DNA of 38,499 nucleotides from a virus. A program made the translations under genes and the position numbers. The DNA is taken from UHGV virus genome UHGV-2201310; one strand, given 5' to 3'. Shown here in pieces: positions 2,944 to 10,715 of the stretch (positions are counted from its first letter, which is position 1; every line of letters starts with the position of its first letter). The notes beneath the pieces were generated by a model. That model ran no database searches and was not told where the DNA came from. It was given only the letters and a program-made list of their open reading frames with translations.

Positions 2944-3288
2944 TTAGTCCTTGCGTAGCTCGCTGATTCTTCTGTAAGTCTCTGGTGCTTTGTTTCCGTG
3001 TATCTTCATTTCCGACTTCAACAGAGCAACGAGGGAATCCCATTCGTTGAGGATTCCTTTGAATGCCGGAACGCGCTTTGCAACCTTGTCGAATGAAGCT
3101 CTGATTTCTGGAATCTGCTCAACAAGTGCAACGCATCGCCGGAAGTCTGCTGCGTCATGTGGAGCGCCGAAGTGATGACCATAGATATTCTTTTTCAGTC
3201 CACATGCGATTGAGGCAAGAGTTGCGCTACTGATGCCGACATCGCCAGTCGATTGCCATTTCAAAACCTTCATAGCCAAATCTGACAT
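2944..3288 (-). CDS. hypothetical protein (early-left accessory)
   Basis: ORF with GGAG RBS before ATG at 3288 (MSDLAMKV...); the longer track ORF start at 3315 lies inside a terminator hairpin. Confidence 0.5.
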   Translation of the reverse strand: MSDLAMKVLKWQSTGDVGISSATLASIACGLKKNIYGHHFGAPHDAADFRRCVALVEQIPEIRASFDKVAKRVPAFKGILNEWDSLVALLKSEMKIHGNKAPETYRRISELRKD

Positions 3289-5876: not shown

Positions 5877-6383
5877 TTAAATTGCGTGAATAGCGTGACG
5901 AGGGAAGGGGAGAGTTACTGGTGCAAAGGGTATATCGTCGTCAAAATCCATCGGAGGTTCGTTGTGTTGTGCTGGTGATGATTGCTGCTGTGGTTTCTGT
6001 GATTGCCTGCTGGCTGCTTGTTGTTTGCTGTCGCCAATGCCGCCAAGCATTTGCATCACGCCATTAATTCCGACATGAACCTCGGTTGTGTAACGGTCTT
6101 GCCCTGACTGGTCTTTCCACTTTCTGGTTCTCAGCATTCCCTCGAAATAAATCTGATCACCTTTTTTCACATACTGCCCCACGACCTCAGCCAGTTTCCC
6201 GGATACAGCAACACGATGCCATTCAGTCAATTCCTTTTGCTCGCCAGTATTTTTATCTCGCCATTGTTCTGACGTGGCTATTGTCAGGTTAGCGAACGCT
6301 GTTCCTGATGGTGAGTATCGAACTTCCGGGTCTTGTCCTACCCGACCAAGGATAATCACCTTATTTATCCCGCGAGAACTCAT
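5877..6383 (-). CDS. ssb: single-stranded DNA-binding protein with C-terminal extension
   Basis: [23 protein letters not shown]... OB fold, Gly/Gln-rich linker, acidic [10 protein letters not shown] motif; ORF continues 15 codons ([15 protein letters not shown]) past the canonical terminal F. Confidence 0.9.
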
Positions 6384-6847
6384 TTGCTCCACCTCTTGCC
6401 AGTTTTTATGTTGCTTATAATTGATTGAGATACACCCATGTCTTTTGCTATCTTGTACTGACTCTCTTTTTCAGAGAGTCTTTTCCTAATTTCTATAACC
6501 TGCCACTCTGTTAATTTTGCACCATGATGAGCATGACCTTTCTTGGCTCCACGATGCCTTCCTTTTGCTATCTTGTCGTCCATGTTTTCTTGCGCGCTAC
6601 CTAAAAAGAGATGTTCAGGATTAACGCAGCATGGGTTATCGCATTTGTGGCAAACCATCTTCCCAGATGGAATGGGGGAGTGATAAAGCTCAAAAGCAAC
6701 CCGATGAGAAAGCATTGTTACGCCAAAGGCTACAAATTTTGTGTATCCTCCTTTGTTTTTTGAATAGGTAGACTCCCAGCAACCTGTTGTTTCATTAACT
6801 TTGTAGCTGGACTCGAATCTTTTAATAATTCCGTCCAAGTGAGACAT
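6380..6847 (-). CDS. HNH homing endonuclease
   Basis: 155 aa with [18 protein letters not shown] motif and basic C-terminal DNA-binding tail; sits between recombinase and ssb. Confidence 0.85.
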
Positions 6848-7555
6848 TTATGCCGCCTGTTTTAGTTCGTTAACTCTGATGTTCATTACCTGAACGCATT
6901 TAGCCTGCGCTTCCTCGTTGCCAGCCATTAATTGCCAGTCACGCTGATAACGCTCGATGAGTTTTTTCTTGTCAGTTTCTGTTGACGCATAATCGCTGAA
7001 GTCTTTCAGGATTTGTTCGCAGTCAACCGATGGAGATTTCTGGTTGGTATTTTCTGGTGATGGTTTGTTATCTGATGCTGGGATTGCCCATCCCGGCAGC
7101 GATGGAGGGAGCCAGTAAAATCCTGTTCCATCCTTGAGTTTTGCCCTGTGCCATCCCTGCTTTTTATCGAGAGATGTTTGTGCAAAACCTTCCTCAAGGT
7201 TATACAGATACCGACCGATTCCCCACTGAACGGCAGCGCGCTTCATTGCACCGGAACGACCACCTTTGACGGCTTCTACCTGCGTGTTTTCAGCGGCATC
7301 CCATTTGGTTACCCATTCGGAATCAATCTTGATTGATATGCCGCATTCAACTCCGCCGTTGTTGGGAATATCGCGGTATTCATTGCGCCATCCTGCTTTG
7401 CCGCAAACATCGTCCAGGCGCTTCATGATTGCCCGGTTCGTGACATAAGCCAGCACCATAGCCCACACCTTGCCATCGCGTGTTTTACCGCTTTGCTGTA
7501 TTCGCCATTCGATATCTTCAGGGCTGAATGGCTCATCGAATTTGTTCAAATCCAT
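6848..7555 (-). CDS. single-strand annealing recombinase (Rad52/Sak-like N-terminus, Erf-like C-terminus)
   Basis: 235 aa; position equals P22 erf; C-terminal ...ETDKKKLIERYQRDWQLMAGNEEAQAKCVQVMNIRVNELKQ resembles Erf C-terminus as I recall it; GAGGTG RBS. Confidence 0.65.
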   Translation of the reverse strand: MDLNKFDEPFSPEDIEWRIQQSGKTRDGKVWAMVLAYVTNRAIMKRLDDVCGKAGWRNEYRDIPNNGGVECGISIKIDSEWVTKWDAAENTQVEAVKGGRSGAMKRAAVQWGIGRYLYNLEEGFAQTSLDKKQGWHRAKLKDGTGFYWLPPSLPGWAIPASDNKPSPENTNQKSPSVDCEQILKDFSDYASTETDKKKLIERYQRDWQLMAGNEEAQAKCVQVMNIRVNELKQAA

Positions 7556-7642
7556 AATTCACCTCAGAATGGACATGGCCCAAGGAAATAACGCTGATTT
7601 AATACTTCAGTCTTTGCCGCATTCAAAAATACGCGAACACCT

Positions 7643-7813
7643 TCACGATCTCCCTTCTGGCGATACATTAACGCCTGCTGAGTGTACATGCGTCTCTGTA
7701 ACTTGCTCTCCTTCACTGTGGTTGCAAGTGACATGCATATCTCCTTCGTTACCGATTAATTCTTTCATCTGACGAATGAATTCTTTGTCTGACCAGTTAT
7801 CTGTAAAACTCAT
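7643..7813 (-). CDS. hypothetical small protein (56 aa)
   Basis: Start MSFTDNWSDKEF... coupled by ATGA overlap to kil stop. Confidence 0.4.
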   Translation of the reverse strand: MSFTDNWSDKEFIRQMKELIGNEGDMHVTCNHSEGEQVTETHVHSAGVNVSPEGRS

Positions 7814-7962
7814 TTCCTGCGATACCACGGAAGGTTGATAGCTGATTTCATCGCTTTATTTGCTTCAAGCCACATTTTTGAATCACCAATAAATCGGGCT
7901 ATTACTGCTTTGTTTTGTGCAGCACGAAGCATCTGGTGATTGATGGCTATTTCATTGCGCAT
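7810..7962 (-). CDS. kil: Kil-like host division inhibitor
   Basis: 50 aa ORF MRNEIAINHQMLRAAQNKAVIARFIGDSKMWLEANKAM... resembles lambda Kil (..TFIGDEKMFREA..); located just downstream of cIII as in lambda. Confidence 0.5.
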   Translation of the reverse strand: MRNEIAINHQMLRAAQNKAVIARFIGDSKMWLEANKAMKSAINLPWYRRK

Positions 7963-8081
7963 AACGCCTCCAGTTGTTTCTTTGCTGCTCTGATTAATTG
8001 TTTAACTCGGCGTGATAATTCAGATTCGTGCGGGTAGAAAGCGGACATGACGCCGCTACCCGCGAGCTGAAAGTGCATCAT
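7947..8081 (-). CDS. cIII: CIII-like protease (FtsH) inhibitor
   Basis: 44 aa MMHFQLAGSGVMSAFYPHESELSRRVKQLIRAAKK... similar in pattern to lambda CIII; AAGGAG RBS 7 nt upstream. Confidence 0.5.
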   Translation of the reverse strand: MMHFQLAGSGVMSAFYPHESELSRRVKQLIRAAKKQLEALCAMK

Positions 8082-8142
8082 GGGTAACTCCTTATATTTG
8101 ATTGCATAACGAAAACGCCTCGAGTGAAGCGTTATTGGTATG

Positions 8143-8171
8143 CATATAAAAAGGCCCTCACATTGGAGGGC
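8143..8171 (-). terminator. rho-independent terminator in pL operon (tL-type)
   Basis: Minus-strand hairpin GCCCTC-CAATGT-GAGGGC followed by CTTTTTA. Confidence 0.4.
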
Positions 8172-8264
8172 AAAGAAGATTTCCAATAATCAGAACAAGT
8201 CGGCTCCTGTTTAGTTACGAGCGACATTGCTCACATAGCAGACTCGTAAATCTGCTATAGGCGC

Positions 8265-8426
8265 TTATTCGCATCGCATGACAACATCAAATTTTTCGAG
8301 ATTACTTTGTCGCAACAATCCTTCTTCTACGCGGTCAGCTTTTCTATAATTATCAAATTCGAAATGTTTAATTACTTCTTTTGTTCCTCGCTCTATAACT
8401 TCAACAATGTATTTCTTATTCATCAT
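8265..8426 (-). CDS. hypothetical small protein (53 aa)
   Basis: MMNKKYIVEVIERGTKEVIKHFEF...; ATGA overlap with upstream gene stop; below track cutoff. Confidence 0.35.
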   Translation of the reverse strand: MMNKKYIVEVIERGTKEVIKHFEFDNYRKADRVEEGLLRQSNLEKFDVVMRCE

Positions 8427-8719
8427 TCTTCCCCAAGAGCTTTTCTGATTGCTGCAAGACCTTTATTAACAGCTCCATACCATTCTGGATATGTTGTCGT
8501 TGTTCTATTTTTGGTTTGCTTAAGTAATAACTGAAGTGCTTCGAGAAGGTCAGGTGCTGCCGCTATTAGATTGGCATCTTCAATGCATTGAACTTCCTCA
8601 CAGATTGCAATATACGAACGCCAGCCTGCGCCATTTTCAAGTGAGTCTGCCTGGATGATTTTAATCTCATCGCCATCCATCATTATTTCCCACTTACCTT
8701 TAGTACCTTTAAATTCCAT
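8423..8719 (-). CDS. hypothetical protein (98 aa)
   Basis: ORF with GAGG RBS; no recognisable family. Confidence 0.5.
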   Translation of the reverse strand: MEFKGTKGKWEIMMDGDEIKIIQADSLENGAGWRSYIAICEEVQCIEDANLIAAAPDLLEALQLLLKQTKNRTTTTYPEWYGAVNKGLAAIRKALGEE

Positions 8720-8740
8720 GTTAGCCTCTGTTGTTTATGC

Positions 8741-8767
8741 CAAAAATAAAGGCCGAGTATGCGGCCT
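8741..8767 (-). terminator. rho-independent terminator in pL operon
   Basis: Minus-strand hairpin AGGCCG-CATACT-CGGCCT followed by TTATTTTTG. Confidence 0.45.
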
Positions 8768-8808
8768 GTGATGTTAGATTTACTTTCATTTTTGAACGGC
8801 AGCTACAA

Positions 8809-9072
8809 TTATGATGGAATGTACAAAACCACTTTCCAGTTCATAGAAGTGGATGATGGCATAAAATAATCCCACGACTCGTTAGCTACTAACTCTTTAT
8901 TAACTGTGGTGGCAGCAATTTCGGCACCACCTTTATTATTAAAAATGTCGTTCGAACACTGACATTTTCCATCTGCATGCACATATAAAATATCATATGT
9001 CTCTGTATCGTAATCACCACTTATGTCTCTGATAACAATTCCTGGCTTCAATGATTTAATTTTCTTGTCCAT
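8809..9072 (-). CDS. hypothetical protein (87 aa)
   Basis: ORF with GAGGTG RBS 5 nt before ATG; no recognisable family. Confidence 0.5.
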   Translation of the reverse strand: MDKKIKSLKPGIVIRDISGDYDTETYDILYVHADGKCQCSNDIFNNKGGAEIAATTVNKELVANESWDYFMPSSTSMNWKVVLYIPS

Positions 9073-9126
9073 ATATCACCTCAAATAAGTTGTTTGCCGC
9101 GAAAGTAAATACGCTTAAGTTACCTG

Positions 9127-9264
9127 TTATTTATCCCACCAAGTTCCGTATCTATCTATCCAGTTACACCAATCATCGACACTCCATTTTGTTGTGTCGC
9201 ATTTTGGCAATTGGCATGAATATCTACCTTCTTTGTAAAGTCGGCGTTTGATTTTCTTGAGCAT
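9127..9264 (-). CDS. hypothetical small Cys/Trp-rich protein (45 aa)
   Basis: MLKKIKRRLYKEGRYSCQLPKCDTTKWSVDDWCNWIDRYGTWWDK; GAGGTGG RBS overlapping N stop. Confidence 0.3.
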   Translation of the reverse strand: MLKKIKRRLYKEGRYSCQLPKCDTTKWSVDDWCNWIDRYGTWWDK

Positions 9265-9271
9265 GACCACC

Positions 9272-9604
9272 TCAATCGTAATAAGCTGGAATTGATTTTC
9301 CGCGTTGCTTCTGGCGGCCTGAGCAAGTCACACCCATTTCACTGCGTGGCTTGCTGTACCATGTGCGCTGATTCTTGCGCTCAATACGTTGCAGGTTGCT
9401 TTCAATCTGTTCGTGGTATTCAGCCAGCACCGTAAGGTCTATCGGATTCAGTGCGCTTTCTACTCGTGATTTCGGTTTGCGATTCAGCGAGAGAATAGGG
9501 CGGTTAACTGGTTTTGCGCTTACCCCAACCAACAGGGGATTTGCTGCTTTCCATTGAGCCTGTTTCTCTGCGCGACGTTCGCGGCGGCGTGTTTGTGCAT
9601 CCAT
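9272..9604 (-). CDS. N: antitermination protein N (lambda-type)
   Basis: MDAQTRRRERRAEKQAQWKAANPLLVGVSAKPVNRPILSLNRKPKSRVESALNPIDLTVLAEYH... near-identical to lambda N including the Arg-rich boxB-binding motif. Confidence 0.9.
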   Translation of the reverse strand: MDAQTRRRERRAEKQAQWKAANPLLVGVSAKPVNRPILSLNRKPKSRVESALNPIDLTVLAEYHEQIESNLQRIERKNQRTWYSKPRSEMGVTCSGRQKQRGKSIPAYYD

Positions 9605-9776
9605 CTGGATTCTCCTGTCAGTTAGCTTTGGTGGTGTGGTAGGTGGGAGACCCATTTCGACCTGCTTCGGCCGACTTCAATTCGGCAATAGTTCCGCAGG
9701 CCTCGCCGCTTTACGTGCGACATATTCCCATCCATGAACCCTTCACCACACCCCAAAGCCTTCTGCTTTGAATGCT

Positions 9777-9807
9777 GCCCTTCTTCAGGGCTAAATTTTT
9801 AAGAGCC
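9777..9807 (-). promoter_or_regulatory. nutL (boxA + boxB)
   Basis: Minus-strand GGCTCTTAAAAATTTA followed by GCCCTGAAGAAGGGC, matching lambda nutL boxB exactly. Confidence 0.8.
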
Positions 9808-9846
9808 TCACCTTCATGGTGGTTAGTGCGTCCTGCTGATGGCTAA

Positions 9847-9875
9847 ATAGTACGATTTGTACTTTATCGAGTCAA
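9847..9875 (-). promoter_or_regulatory. pL promoter with overlapping palindromic candidate operator
   Basis: Minus strand TTGACT-17 bp-TACTAT; perfect palindrome AGTACGATTTGTACT (9849-9863) overlaps the -10/spacer. Confidence 0.5.
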
Positions 9876-9939
9876 TACAAAATGTTCTAAATATAATTAG
9901 TTTTTTATAACGCTTTGTATTTAATGGGTTTATATTTTG

Positions 9940-9967
9940 GAAAAAGAAACCCGACGCTAAGGTCGGG
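9940..9967 (-). terminator. terminator downstream of cI
   Basis: Minus-strand hairpin CCCGACC-TTAGCG-TCGGG followed by TTTCTTTTT; corresponding lambda region is similar. Confidence 0.5.
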
Positions 9968-9999
9968 TTATTGTTGTGTGTTTTAGAGTGGTGAGGCTG

Positions 10000-10659
10000 T
10001 TAACTAAATGTCTCTTCAGGCCACTGGCTGGCGATAACTTTCCCTACTACGGAACAGCTATCATTGCATGGAATCATTGGATATTGCGGGTTTAGTGGCT
10101 GTAGGAACACCTGACCGCTATCCCTGATCAGTTTCTTGAAGGTAAACTCGTCACCACCAAGTCTGGCTATGCAGAAATCACCTGGCTCAACAGCCTGCTC
10201 AGGGTCAACGAGAATTAACATCCCGTCAGGAAAGCTTGGCTTGGATCCTGTTGGAGCGGTCATGGAATTACCTTCAACTTCAAGCCAAAACGCACAATCA
10301 CTGGCTTTTTTGGTTGTGCTGACCCATCTCTCCGCATCACCTTTGGTAAAGGTTCTAAGCTCAGGCGAGAACATCCCGGCCTGAACATGAGAAAAAACAG
10401 GGTACTCATATTGTTTTTTAACGGGGGCAGATGAGTATTCGCCAACAGGTGAAAATGTACCGTCGTGGTTGAATGAGACGTTATCAATACCAAGGTATTT
10501 AAACACCACACCAATCTCGTCAAGAGATGGATGACGAGATCCGCGCAACCAGTGACCAATTCCACCCTGCGTCATACCAAGCTCTTCAGCTAACTTCTCT
10601 TGAGTTATGCCGAGCTCTTTCATTCTGGATCTAGCCAGTTCATACCATTTCATTTTCAT
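10000..10659 (-). CDS. cI: CI-type prophage repressor (lambda-like C-terminal domain, heterologous N-terminal HTH)
   Basis: C-terminal two-thirds ([22 protein letters not shown]...[13 protein letters not shown]) is near-identical to lambda CI incl. Ala-Gly cleavage site and Ser/Lys dyad region; N-terminal ~70 aa is an unrelated XRE-type HTH. Start at MKMKWYEL chosen (alternative 10653). Confidence 0.85.
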
Positions 10660-10715
10660 ACCCTTATTATTACGCTCTGTACTAAAACCATCCATGCACA
10701 AGATGTATTTTTTGT

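Follow-up and report, generated by a model that had tools for sequence, protein, structure and literature searches.

A probable mosaic accessory segment of four small early genes between N and cIII in a lambda-like phage

The interval of one kilobase that separates the antiterminator gene N from cIII (positions 8265-9264) in viral genome UHGV-2201310, of which the 38,499-nucleotide stretch analysed here is referred to as the window, contains four genuine, conserved genes of the early-left (pL) operon of a lambda-like phage, denoted orf45, orf87, orf98 and orf53 in order from N to cIII. On balance we favour the view that what lies here is an accessory, mosaic part of the pL operon in a temperate phage with an N of the lambda type, made up of four separately exchangeable cassettes that encode dispensable, soluble, non-enzymatic proteins binding host or rival factors. 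None of the four genes is new, copies with 97-100% identity being present in sequenced phages and prophages, and they are real but ordinary early genes; the block as found is of little importance.

All four genes lie on the minus strand, as expected from the preliminary description of four serial small ORFs: orf45 (9127-9264; 45 aa from an ATG start, or 47 aa from an alternative GTG start at 9270), orf87 (8809-9072; 87 aa), orf98 (8423-8719; 98 aa) and orf53 (8265-8426; 53 aa), the start of orf53 overlapping the stop of orf98 (ATGA). The good ribosome binding sites reported previously are evident, with a Shine-Dalgarno sequence read directly before each gene, i.e. GAGGTG for orf45 (in an overlap with the stop codon of N), GAGGTGA for orf87, AGAGG for orf98 and GGGGAAGA for orf53. 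Translational coupling, also proposed for the block, can be retained for the orf98/orf53 overlap and for N and orf45, which are 7 nt apart, but not for orf45 and orf87 (54 nt) or orf87 and orf98 (89 nt). The AT-rich character of the segment is likewise apparent, its GC content of 0.375 comparing with 0.479 for the window and the block having, at 37.5%, the lowest value of any 1-kb stretch within it. Each of the four proteins matches a PHROG family (E = 1e-22 to 1e-50), and all are predicted to be soluble, with neither a transmembrane segment nor extreme acidity. Crude pooled pN/pS ratios were 0.29 for orf45, 0.46 for orf98 and 0.21 for orf53, whilst close alleles of orf87 offer too few variable sites for such an estimate. 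The term "uncharacterised" thus holds for function but not for the families, which are catalogued (PF17583, PF27050 and PHROGs 1871, 33140, 1273 and 6949), and all four genes are conserved elsewhere.

The flanking genes are securely those first named. N (minus strand, 9272..9604, beginning MDAQTRRRERRAEKQAQWKAAN) is of the lambda type (Pfam N36, E = 2.2e-26) and has RefSeq homologues, of 333 nt, named "antitermination protein N"; cIII (minus strand, 7947..8081) matches Pfam cIII with E = 2e-30, and kil (minus strand, 7810..7962) matches Lambda_Kil with E = 1.7e-20. The strand that carries the block also encodes cI, N, cIII and kil, together with SSB and a Rad52-type recombinase. A nutL boxB hairpin, GCCCTGAAGAAGGGC, was read from the sequence at 9777..9791 on the minus strand and was recovered by a hairpin scan; it is identical to the boxB of lambda nutL. 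A sigma-70 promoter candidate on the same strand (9847..9875; TTGACT, 17 nt, TACTAT), scoring 9/12 in a consensus scan, lies 5' of nutL and N in a position that fits lambda pL, and as a match to pattern it is only tentatively assigned. Within the block, the same type of scan identified no sigma-70-like site on this strand, such as the promoter of its own that a classical moron (promoter, gene and terminator) would have, although weak promoters could escape it and promoter-like matches were no commoner than in shuffled sequence. An Rfam scan of positions 7700-10100 at E <= 1 matched no RNA family.

Two internal terminators had been described for the segment, of which one stands. The sole canonical intrinsic terminator found by the terminator scan within the block occupies the spacer between orf87 and orf98 (minus strand, 8740..8767) and comprises a 6-bp GC-rich stem (8767-8750) followed by TTATTTTT. 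The supposed second is an 11-bp hairpin found by RNA folding just 3' of orf53 (minus strand, 8234..8259), which has no T-run; the 76-nt segment containing it folds with -24.4 kcal/mol (z = -2.7), and it was assigned to the orf53 cassette because it is common to phage mEp043 and absent from Sf6. Two further canonical terminator-like structures lie just outside the block, on the upstream side of cIII. One of them (8171-8154) ends a mosaic boundary stretch (minus strand, 8154..8232) recognised from the Sf6/mEp043 alignment together with the terminator scan, and labelled in the aligned part of the Sf6 record as "bsq4; boundary sequence" plus terminator tL2A; the other (minus strand, 8114..8133) was found by the scan 5' of cIII, and folding of 8100-8185 gave z = -4.3. 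A transcript from pL would accordingly pass through nutL, N, orf45 and orf87 before meeting the first intrinsic terminator at 8767-8740. Because this one predicted terminator sits between orf87 and orf98, we infer that orf45 and orf87 would be made alongside N as immediate-early products, whereas orf98 and orf53, located past it, would need N-modified polymerase and would be delayed-early.

Comparison with related genomes indicates that the interval is not, as was supposed, one block of four genes but a set of separately exchangeable cassettes. No record contains all four genes together, and the share of the block that is covered stays below 80% in every phage and E. coli record. In E. coli S87 and SCU-124 other genes come after orf45 and orf87, and in closely related phages the same places are occupied by ral, by a gene for a 130-158-aa protein, by DUF7167, by DUF551 or by nothing. 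That the interval corresponds to the ral slot, as the preliminary description proposed, is borne out by Sf6, which has ral and gene 34 there, and by P22, which has ral, orf78, orf87 and gene 17. Several linkers are reused, namely the N/orf45 junction, the TTATTTGAGGTGAnATATG spacer, the junction formed by the terminator and GGCATAAACAACAGAGGCTAAC, and the stretch resembling Sf6 bsq4/tL2A. In particular, PF27050 genes found in at least eight different upstream contexts have the same hairpin, T-run and GGCATAAACAACAGAGGCTAAC-ATG in front of them, and the 8740..8767 terminator doubles as the left junction, a conserved one, of the PF27050 cassette; in cases of an overlap between the hairpin and the stop codon of ral, both arms of the stem are changed. 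These conserved terminator-plus-linker junctions, a lead of some value, reveal how cassettes swap in the ral slot.

The product of orf45 (5.7 kDa, pI 9.4, five Trp, three Cys) matches PF17583 (DUF5484) over profile positions 2-41 of 43 with 48 bits (E = 9.6e-13), above the gathering threshold of 27 bits for that family, and is therefore a DUF5484 member; it also matches phrog_1871 (E = 1.6e-22). Relatives occur in 925 phage records, mostly of T-even phages. A literature search for DUF5484 found no papers, the T4 homologue gp55.4 being named only in a list, given in a transcriptome preprint, of early-to-middle transcripts of phage T2 whose abundance is maintained under Tmn defence. The occurrence of DUF5484 in both lambdoid and T-even phages, and its fusion to a DNA polymerase in one clade, make it a lead worth following.

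By comparison orf87 is rare: although it matches phrog_33140 with E = 9e-50, its relatives form four clusters among 5.8 billion proteins, and of 5,426 complete E. coli genomes, 8 contain >=80% of its segment. It occupies the place that ral has in Sf6. The AlphaFold2 (AF2) model, built from a four-sequence alignment, reached a pLDDT of 59 and was set aside for fold searching because this is too poor.

A much larger family is represented by orf98, which matches phrog_1273 (E = 8e-33). The Pfam copy scanned lacks the PF27050 (Phage_P22_Y8K6) model, so that orf98 itself was assigned through precomputed PF27050 annotation of its 97-99% identical homologues and through a family HMM; this HMM, built from 64 PF27050-family members, matches P22 orf78 (E = 2e-12), which is likely the source of the family name. 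The family comprises 7,218 clusters at 50% identity reaching E <= 1e-3. Within orf98, two variable modules flank a conserved LIAAAPDLLEALQ motif, and across PF27050 the modules are shuffled, one N-terminal module (N1) being paired with 22 different C-modules; the AF2 model (pLDDT 72) has three short strands and a helical hairpin. A Pfam scan of 64 diverse members gave no match, nor did searching every PDB sequence with a profile, and the contexts of distant members, mostly short contigs with small unannotated genes, yielded no functional association; a literature search for PF27050 and for the AAAPDLL/AAPELLEAL motifs found no papers. A large, modular family whose modules are visibly shuffled is a lead in its own right, and a function found for either PF27050 or DUF5484 would allow thousands of phage genes to be annotated.

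In contrast to its upstream neighbour, orf53 is confined to enterobacterial lambdoid phages: it matches phrog_6949 (E = 6e-40), falls into 13 clusters, all from Enterobacteriaceae and >=75% identical, and is carried by 79 IMG/VR loci. Its pairwise match to P22 gp17 (24% identity over 46 aa, 20.8 bits), like the pairwise similarity of orf87 to gp17, is probably due to chance; both were rejected because profiles give no support, PF17420 (GP17) being found neither on orf53 at E <= 1 nor in its 13 homologue clusters, whilst P22 gp17 itself matched with E = 1e-58.

With respect to function, the proposal that these genes are anti-defence candidates is plausible from their position and from nothing else. 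No family in PADLOC-DB (defence and toxin-antitoxin models) matched any of the four proteins at E <= 1, NCBIfam gave no useful match, and DUF5484 was the only match in Pfam, which leaves the anti-restriction families unmatched. The earlier exclusion of Ral, SieB and Ea10 as identities for the four proved correct: no Pfam match to Ral (PF11058), SieB or Ea10 (DUF2528) was obtained at E <= 1, blastp against P22 and Sf6 Ral gave nothing significant (best E = 0.36 over 11 residues), and neither strand of 8265-9264 contains an ORF of SieB size (~190 aa, membrane protein), the four proteins being free of transmembrane segments. Of the checks originally suggested, homology searching reached as far as T-even phages and Klebsiella phages, where distant homologues occur; fold searches were uninformative.

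It is against this background that other accounts of the segment have to be weighed. That the block is an anti-defence island, in which each protein, like Ral, Abc2 or P22 gp17, is an inhibitor of some restriction or abortive-infection system of the host, we regard as possible but doubtful. The slot holds ral in Sf6, P22 and many E. coli prophages, and also gene 17; the genes are early, small, AT-rich and subject to fast turnover; and hypervariable modules on a conserved scaffold, as in PF27050, are the pattern expected of arms-race interfaces. Silas et al. (bioRxiv 10.1101/2023.04.06.535777) moreover class the region as accessory and ral-containing, and report that orf184, from the ral-containing accessory region of phage mEp213, triggers gop-beta-cII; orf184 is a different, 107-aa protein that is not encoded in the window, and was rejected as one of the four ORFs. 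On the other hand, known anti-defence and defence families are unmatched, the orf53-gp17 match is weak and has no profile support, and the four proteins do not have the strong acidity of a DNA mimic. In addition, the 200-gene accessory screen of the same authors, which set ECOR strains against T-phages, P1vir and lambda-vir, included orf110 and orf123, which are PF27050 members, and orf149 (ATN92755.1), a homologue 98% identical to orf53, and none of these three appears in the list of genes with a phenotype (bioRxiv 10.1101/2023.04.06.535777). A reading in which PF27050 is a very large, unrecognised, modular early family with shuffled specificity modules for combinatorial counter-defence or anti-exclusion, DUF5484 separately being a free-standing polymerase tail, seems to us unlikely. 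In that case the variable modules, i.e. the N-terminal beta region and the loop of the C-terminal helical hairpin, could recombine freely around the invariant LIAAAPxLLEALQ helix and could be specificity determinants against variable host or prophage factors, and orf45 could target a conserved replication or nucleic-acid partner. We assign a similarly low likelihood to the suggestion that orf45, instead of being a factor in host defence, is a mini-domain associated with nucleic acid or with the replisome, a role consistent with its basic, tryptophan-rich composition, with its conservation in T-even phages, and with the 47% identity between its residues 13-42 and the C-terminal 30 residues of the family-A DNA polymerase encoded by CB4, an N4-like Pectobacterium phage; this tail is kept across a clade of Schitoviridae polymerases from Pectobacterium, Kosakonia and Escherichia. 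This DUF5484-like tail on some phage DNA polymerases may, as a sequence resemblance, hint at a replication or nucleic-acid link for orf45 over host interaction; nevertheless it represents one fusion event in one clade, lambdoid phages rely on the host polymerase, and the neighbourhood of N in lambdoid phages or of gene 55 in T4 may be coincidence.

The relationship between orf98 and orf53 raises a further question, since in ~63 of 79 loci orf53 and a PF27050 gene overlap by ATGA, an arrangement kept even where the PF27050 partner is only 38-50% identical as against 94-98% for orf53. Such an overlap could reflect a functional link, but that the two form an obligate, co-translated two-component module (effector and modulator, or toxin-antitoxin-like) is quite improbable. 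An unrelated gene for a 130-158-aa protein precedes orf53 in ~12 of the 79 loci and other genes do so in a few more, such that strict co-occurrence fails, orf53 being without a PF27050 partner in ~12-15 of 79. Conversely, PF27050 has more than 7,000 clusters against 13 for orf53, its genes occur without orf53 in P22 and in loci L088, L091 and L097, those in P22 (followed by DUF551), L088 and L091 have unrelated 3' neighbours, and the conserved C-terminal ...AISKALGEE may be a mere recombination joint. It is more improbable still, to the point of being barely credible, that at least one of the four ORFs is an accidental frame in AT-rich intergenic DNA. This would suit the three non-synonymous and zero synonymous differences among close alleles of orf87, and the poor AF2 model of that protein; yet no ORF lacks either a PHROG family or a Shine-Dalgarno sequence, orf87 has a full-length, 41% identical homologue with motifs kept in Klebsiella phages, which are an unrelated group, and internal stops are absent from close alleles of orf45, orf87 and orf98 and present in 1 of 22 for orf53.

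For the mosaic accessory segment that we prefer, presence/absence polymorphism suggests that each protein would be individually dispensable. The proteins would bind host or rival-phage factors stoichiometrically, the outcome being host modulation, counter-defence or inter-phage competition, and would stay outside replication, the control of lysogeny and morphogenesis; orf98 and orf53 would not be an obligate pair, nor would the four proteins form one coordinated system.

Set beside known systems, the four genes resemble Ral of lambda, P22 and Sf6, and P22 gp17, in that they encode small early proteins at the place in the pL operon that separates N from cIII; they differ in having no sequence relationship to them, neither PF11058 nor PF17420 being matched and the 20.8-bit gp17-orf53 similarity being a pairwise one. 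KB57_201 of Klebsiella phage vB_KpnM_KB57 (and KpS8; Vequintavirinae) is 41% identical to orf87 over 85% of its length and has the motifs KPGIVIRDIS, TYDxL and SWxxYF in common with it, but unlike orf87 is carried by a lytic 143-kb myovirus, within a run of unannotated small genes. P22 orf78 is, like orf98, a PF27050 member with LxxAAPxLLEAL and AAIxKALGxE motifs in the same operon slot, just 3' of ral in P22; the N-terminal module of orf98 is different, longer and contains an FKGTxGxW box, and orf98 is followed by orf53 whereas P22 orf78 is followed by a DUF551 gene. With mEp043 the block has only the terminator, orf98 and orf53 in common, over which the DNA of mEp043 and APC_JM3.2 is 97-98% identical, another gene or ral standing upstream in place of orf87. 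Sf6 shares both flanks with this phage, with ral and gene 34 between them. From orf45 neither Sf6 gene 36 nor T4 gp55.4 differs in substance: the T-even gp55.4 proteins are 52-55% identical to it, and gene 36, which is annotated as "similar to phage T4 gene Orf55.4", is 98% identical and also lies directly after N.

Judged from their sequences, all four minus-strand open reading frames between N and cIII (8265-9264), namely orf45 (9264-9127), orf87 (9072-8809), orf98 (8719-8423) and orf53 (8426-8265), of 45, 87, 98 and 53 aa respectively, are genes: each has a Shine-Dalgarno sequence and matches a PHROG family (E = 1e-22 to 1e-50). Crude pooled pN/pS values among close alleles were 0.29 for orf45, 0.46 for orf98 and 0.21 for orf53, the differences in orf87 being too few for this measure. 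The four families are known already and the finding is an ordinary one; the novelty of this combination of genes is no more than the trivial one of lambdoid mosaicism.

The window represents a lambdoid phage. Its best matches on a large scale are phages of E. coli and Shigella, namely vB_EcoP-720R6, mEp043, Sf101 and IME10; since each of these covers no more than 35-42% of its first 25 kb, at ~96-97% identity, the genome is itself a mosaic. Along the minus strand the order is cI-type repressor (10000-10701; Peptidase_S24 and HTH domains), candidate pL-like promoter (9875-9847), boxB hairpin (9791-9777, GCCCTGAAGAAGGGC, read from the sequence and identical to the boxB of lambda nutL), lambda-type N (9604-9272; Pfam N36, E = 2e-26), the four ORFs, cIII (8081-7947), kil (7962-7810), a Rad52-type recombinase (6848-7555), a 155-aa HNH endonuclease (6380-6847; HNH_3, E = 1e-13) and ssb (5877-6392). 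As the HNH gene abuts the recombinase gene and overlaps ssb, it may represent an inserted homing endonuclease. Downstream of kil lies a 56-aa minus-strand ORF (7564-7734) with no match in Pfam; a 171-nt hypothetical gene is annotated at this position in RefSeq prophages, making it a further unassigned early-left gene. Upstream of cIII, a 31-aa minus-strand ORF (8132-8227) that overlaps a bsq4-like boundary sequence and a tL2A-like terminator is unlikely to be a gene. Published work already describes the genes of this operon as mostly unassigned (PMC8022706).

The lengths, order and ribosome-binding sites of the four ORFs are as given in the preliminary description, as are the AT-richness of the block (0.375 GC versus 0.479; the most AT-rich kilobase in the window) and the lack of a match between any of the four proteins and Ral, SieB or Ea10/DUF2528. 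Translational coupling, also part of that description, holds at orf98/orf53, joined by an ATGA overlap, and at N/orf45, where the gap is 7 nt and the ribosome-binding site of orf45 shares bases with the N stop codon; the other two spacers measure 54 and 89 nt. Similarly, of two internal terminators proposed, one is a canonical intrinsic terminator inside the interval (minus strand, stem 8767-8750 followed by TTATTTTT), whilst the other, after orf53 (8259-8234), is a stable hairpin (z = -2.7) that lacks a T-run; two further canonical terminators follow shortly beyond the interval, at 8171-8154 and 8133-8114. From this anatomy we infer a split in expression, in which orf45 and orf87, positioned between N and the first terminator, would be transcribed together with N from pL, and orf98 and orf53, positioned beyond it, would require N antitermination. 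Within the block, a consensus scan of the coding strand found no promoter-like site, suggesting operon cassettes rather than autonomous morons.

The orf45 product, a basic, tryptophan-rich protein, belongs to DUF5484 (48 bits against a 27-bit cutoff), with relatives detected by tblastn in 925 phage records, chiefly of T-even phages. Over residues 13-42 it shares 47% identity with the 30 residues that end the family-A DNA polymerase of the N4-like Pectobacterium phage CB4 (segments compared: window 9130-9264, minus strand, and positions 3001-3090 of the extracted CB4 locus, the polymerase C-terminus), and this DUF5484-like tail is conserved in related polymerases of N4-like Schitoviridae infecting Pectobacterium, Kosakonia and Escherichia. 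Fusion of the tail to a polymerase hints, as one isolated observation, that DUF5484 has a role linked to replication or nucleic acids, and is one of two items that we consider worth following. The orf87 family is rare (4 clusters among 5.8 billion proteins; 8 of 5,426 complete E. coli genomes); a full-length homologue, 41% identical and with clearly conserved motifs, is encoded by KB57 and KpS8, which are lytic phages of Klebsiella.

The second such item is the modular family of orf98, Pfam PF27050, which bears the name Phage_P22_Y8K6. A word-indexed search returned 182 homologues, nearly all carrying a precomputed PF27050 assignment, and an exhaustive profile search gave 7,218 clusters at 50% identity (E <= 1e-3), almost without exception stand-alone proteins of 90-110 aa. 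Alignments show, from N- to C-terminus, a conserved FKGTxGxW box, a variable region, an almost invariant NAxLIAAAPxLLEALQ helix, a variable stretch and a conserved C-terminal AxAAIxKALGEE; the AF2 model of orf98 (pLDDT 72) has three short strands, a region of low confidence, then a helical hairpin (residues 45-70 and 77-94). When 171 sequences, a sample biased toward relatives of the query, were split at the central motif LIAAAPDLLEALQ and the halves clustered at 60% identity, 9 N-modules and 23 C-modules were obtained, with N1 paired with 22 different C-modules and C1 with six N-modules, a clear sequence signature of within-gene exchange of N- and C-terminal modules around the invariant LIAAAPDLLEALQ, noted for orf98 and the 79 IMG/VR loci.

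The orf53 family is small: its 13 clusters are confined to Enterobacteriaceae, and every one is at least 75% identical. An obligate orf98/orf53 pair might be proposed, as orf53 is ATGA-overlapped by a PF27050 gene in ~63 of the 79 IMG/VR loci that contain it, even where that gene is only 38-50% identical to orf98 and orf53 still 94-98% identical. However, ~12 of the 79 place orf53 behind an unrelated gene of 130-158 aa, and in P22 and three further loci (L088, L091, L097) the gene after the PF27050 member is an unrelated small gene or DUF551; gene order thus indicates a pairing that is common but not obligate.

Searches of PADLOC, NCBIfam and Pfam gave no match informative on function. All four proteins are soluble, without transmembrane segments, and none has the acidity expected of a DNA mimic; the structure model of orf87 was too poor for use. 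The specific anti-defence role advanced in the preliminary description is possible but unsupported, and we regard it as doubtful. Silas et al. (bioRxiv 10.1101/2023.04.06.535777, Supplementary File 3) screened 200 accessory genes in wild E. coli strains, including orf149 (ATN92755.1 of APC_JM3.2), to which orf53 is 98% identical, and orf110 and orf123, both of which belong to PF27050. None of these three is among 'all AGs that produced phenotypes' (orf7, 24, 48, 63, 92, 98, 116, 126, 143, 145, 148 and 184), a result that, though indirect and negative, is the experimental evidence that bears most closely on function. Their orf184, from the same accessory region as ral, triggers gop-beta-cII; it is a different protein from our four, absent from the window. 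Because of their small size, early position, turnover and company in the slot (ral, gene 17, orf184), we judge that each of the four proteins would be a small binder of factors from the host or from rival phages, and dispensable on its own.

Coverage of the block stays below 80% in every phage and E. coli record. What mEp043 and APC_JM3.2 have in common with it is limited to the terminator, orf98 and orf53 (97-98% identity). In E. coli S87 and SCU-124, orf45 and orf87 are present, and a 156-aa gene and DUF2528 come after them. Directly 5' of PF27050 genes stand the hairpin, T-run and GGCATAAACAACAGAGGCTAAC-ATG, in upstream surroundings of at least eight different kinds; if the hairpin runs into the stop codon of ral, its stem differs on both arms. 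The 54-nt spacer and ribosome-binding site of orf87 (9058-9130, minus strand) recur, ~93% identical, upstream of a gene of the DUF7167 family in other prophages of E. coli, which makes DUF7167 an alternative cassette for the slot. Such reused linkers, with the partial sharing among phages, show the block to be a series of cassettes that meet at them. The junction of hairpin, T-run and GGCATAAACAACAGAGGCTAAC linker (8720-8767, minus strand) recurs in many lambdoid phages. In P22, orf78, directly downstream of ral, matches the orf98-family HMM (E = 2e-12). Sf6 has both flanks in common with the window, N with gene 36 (98% identical to orf45, and annotated as similar to T4 Orf55.4) on one side and bsq4/tL2A, with which the 8171-8154 terminator aligns, on the other, but carries ral and gene 34 between them; its locus (~2480-2530) retains the junction motif downstream of gene 34 but has no PF27050 gene there. 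The joints between cassettes at reused linkers agree with the boundary sequences previously annotated in the record of Sf6.
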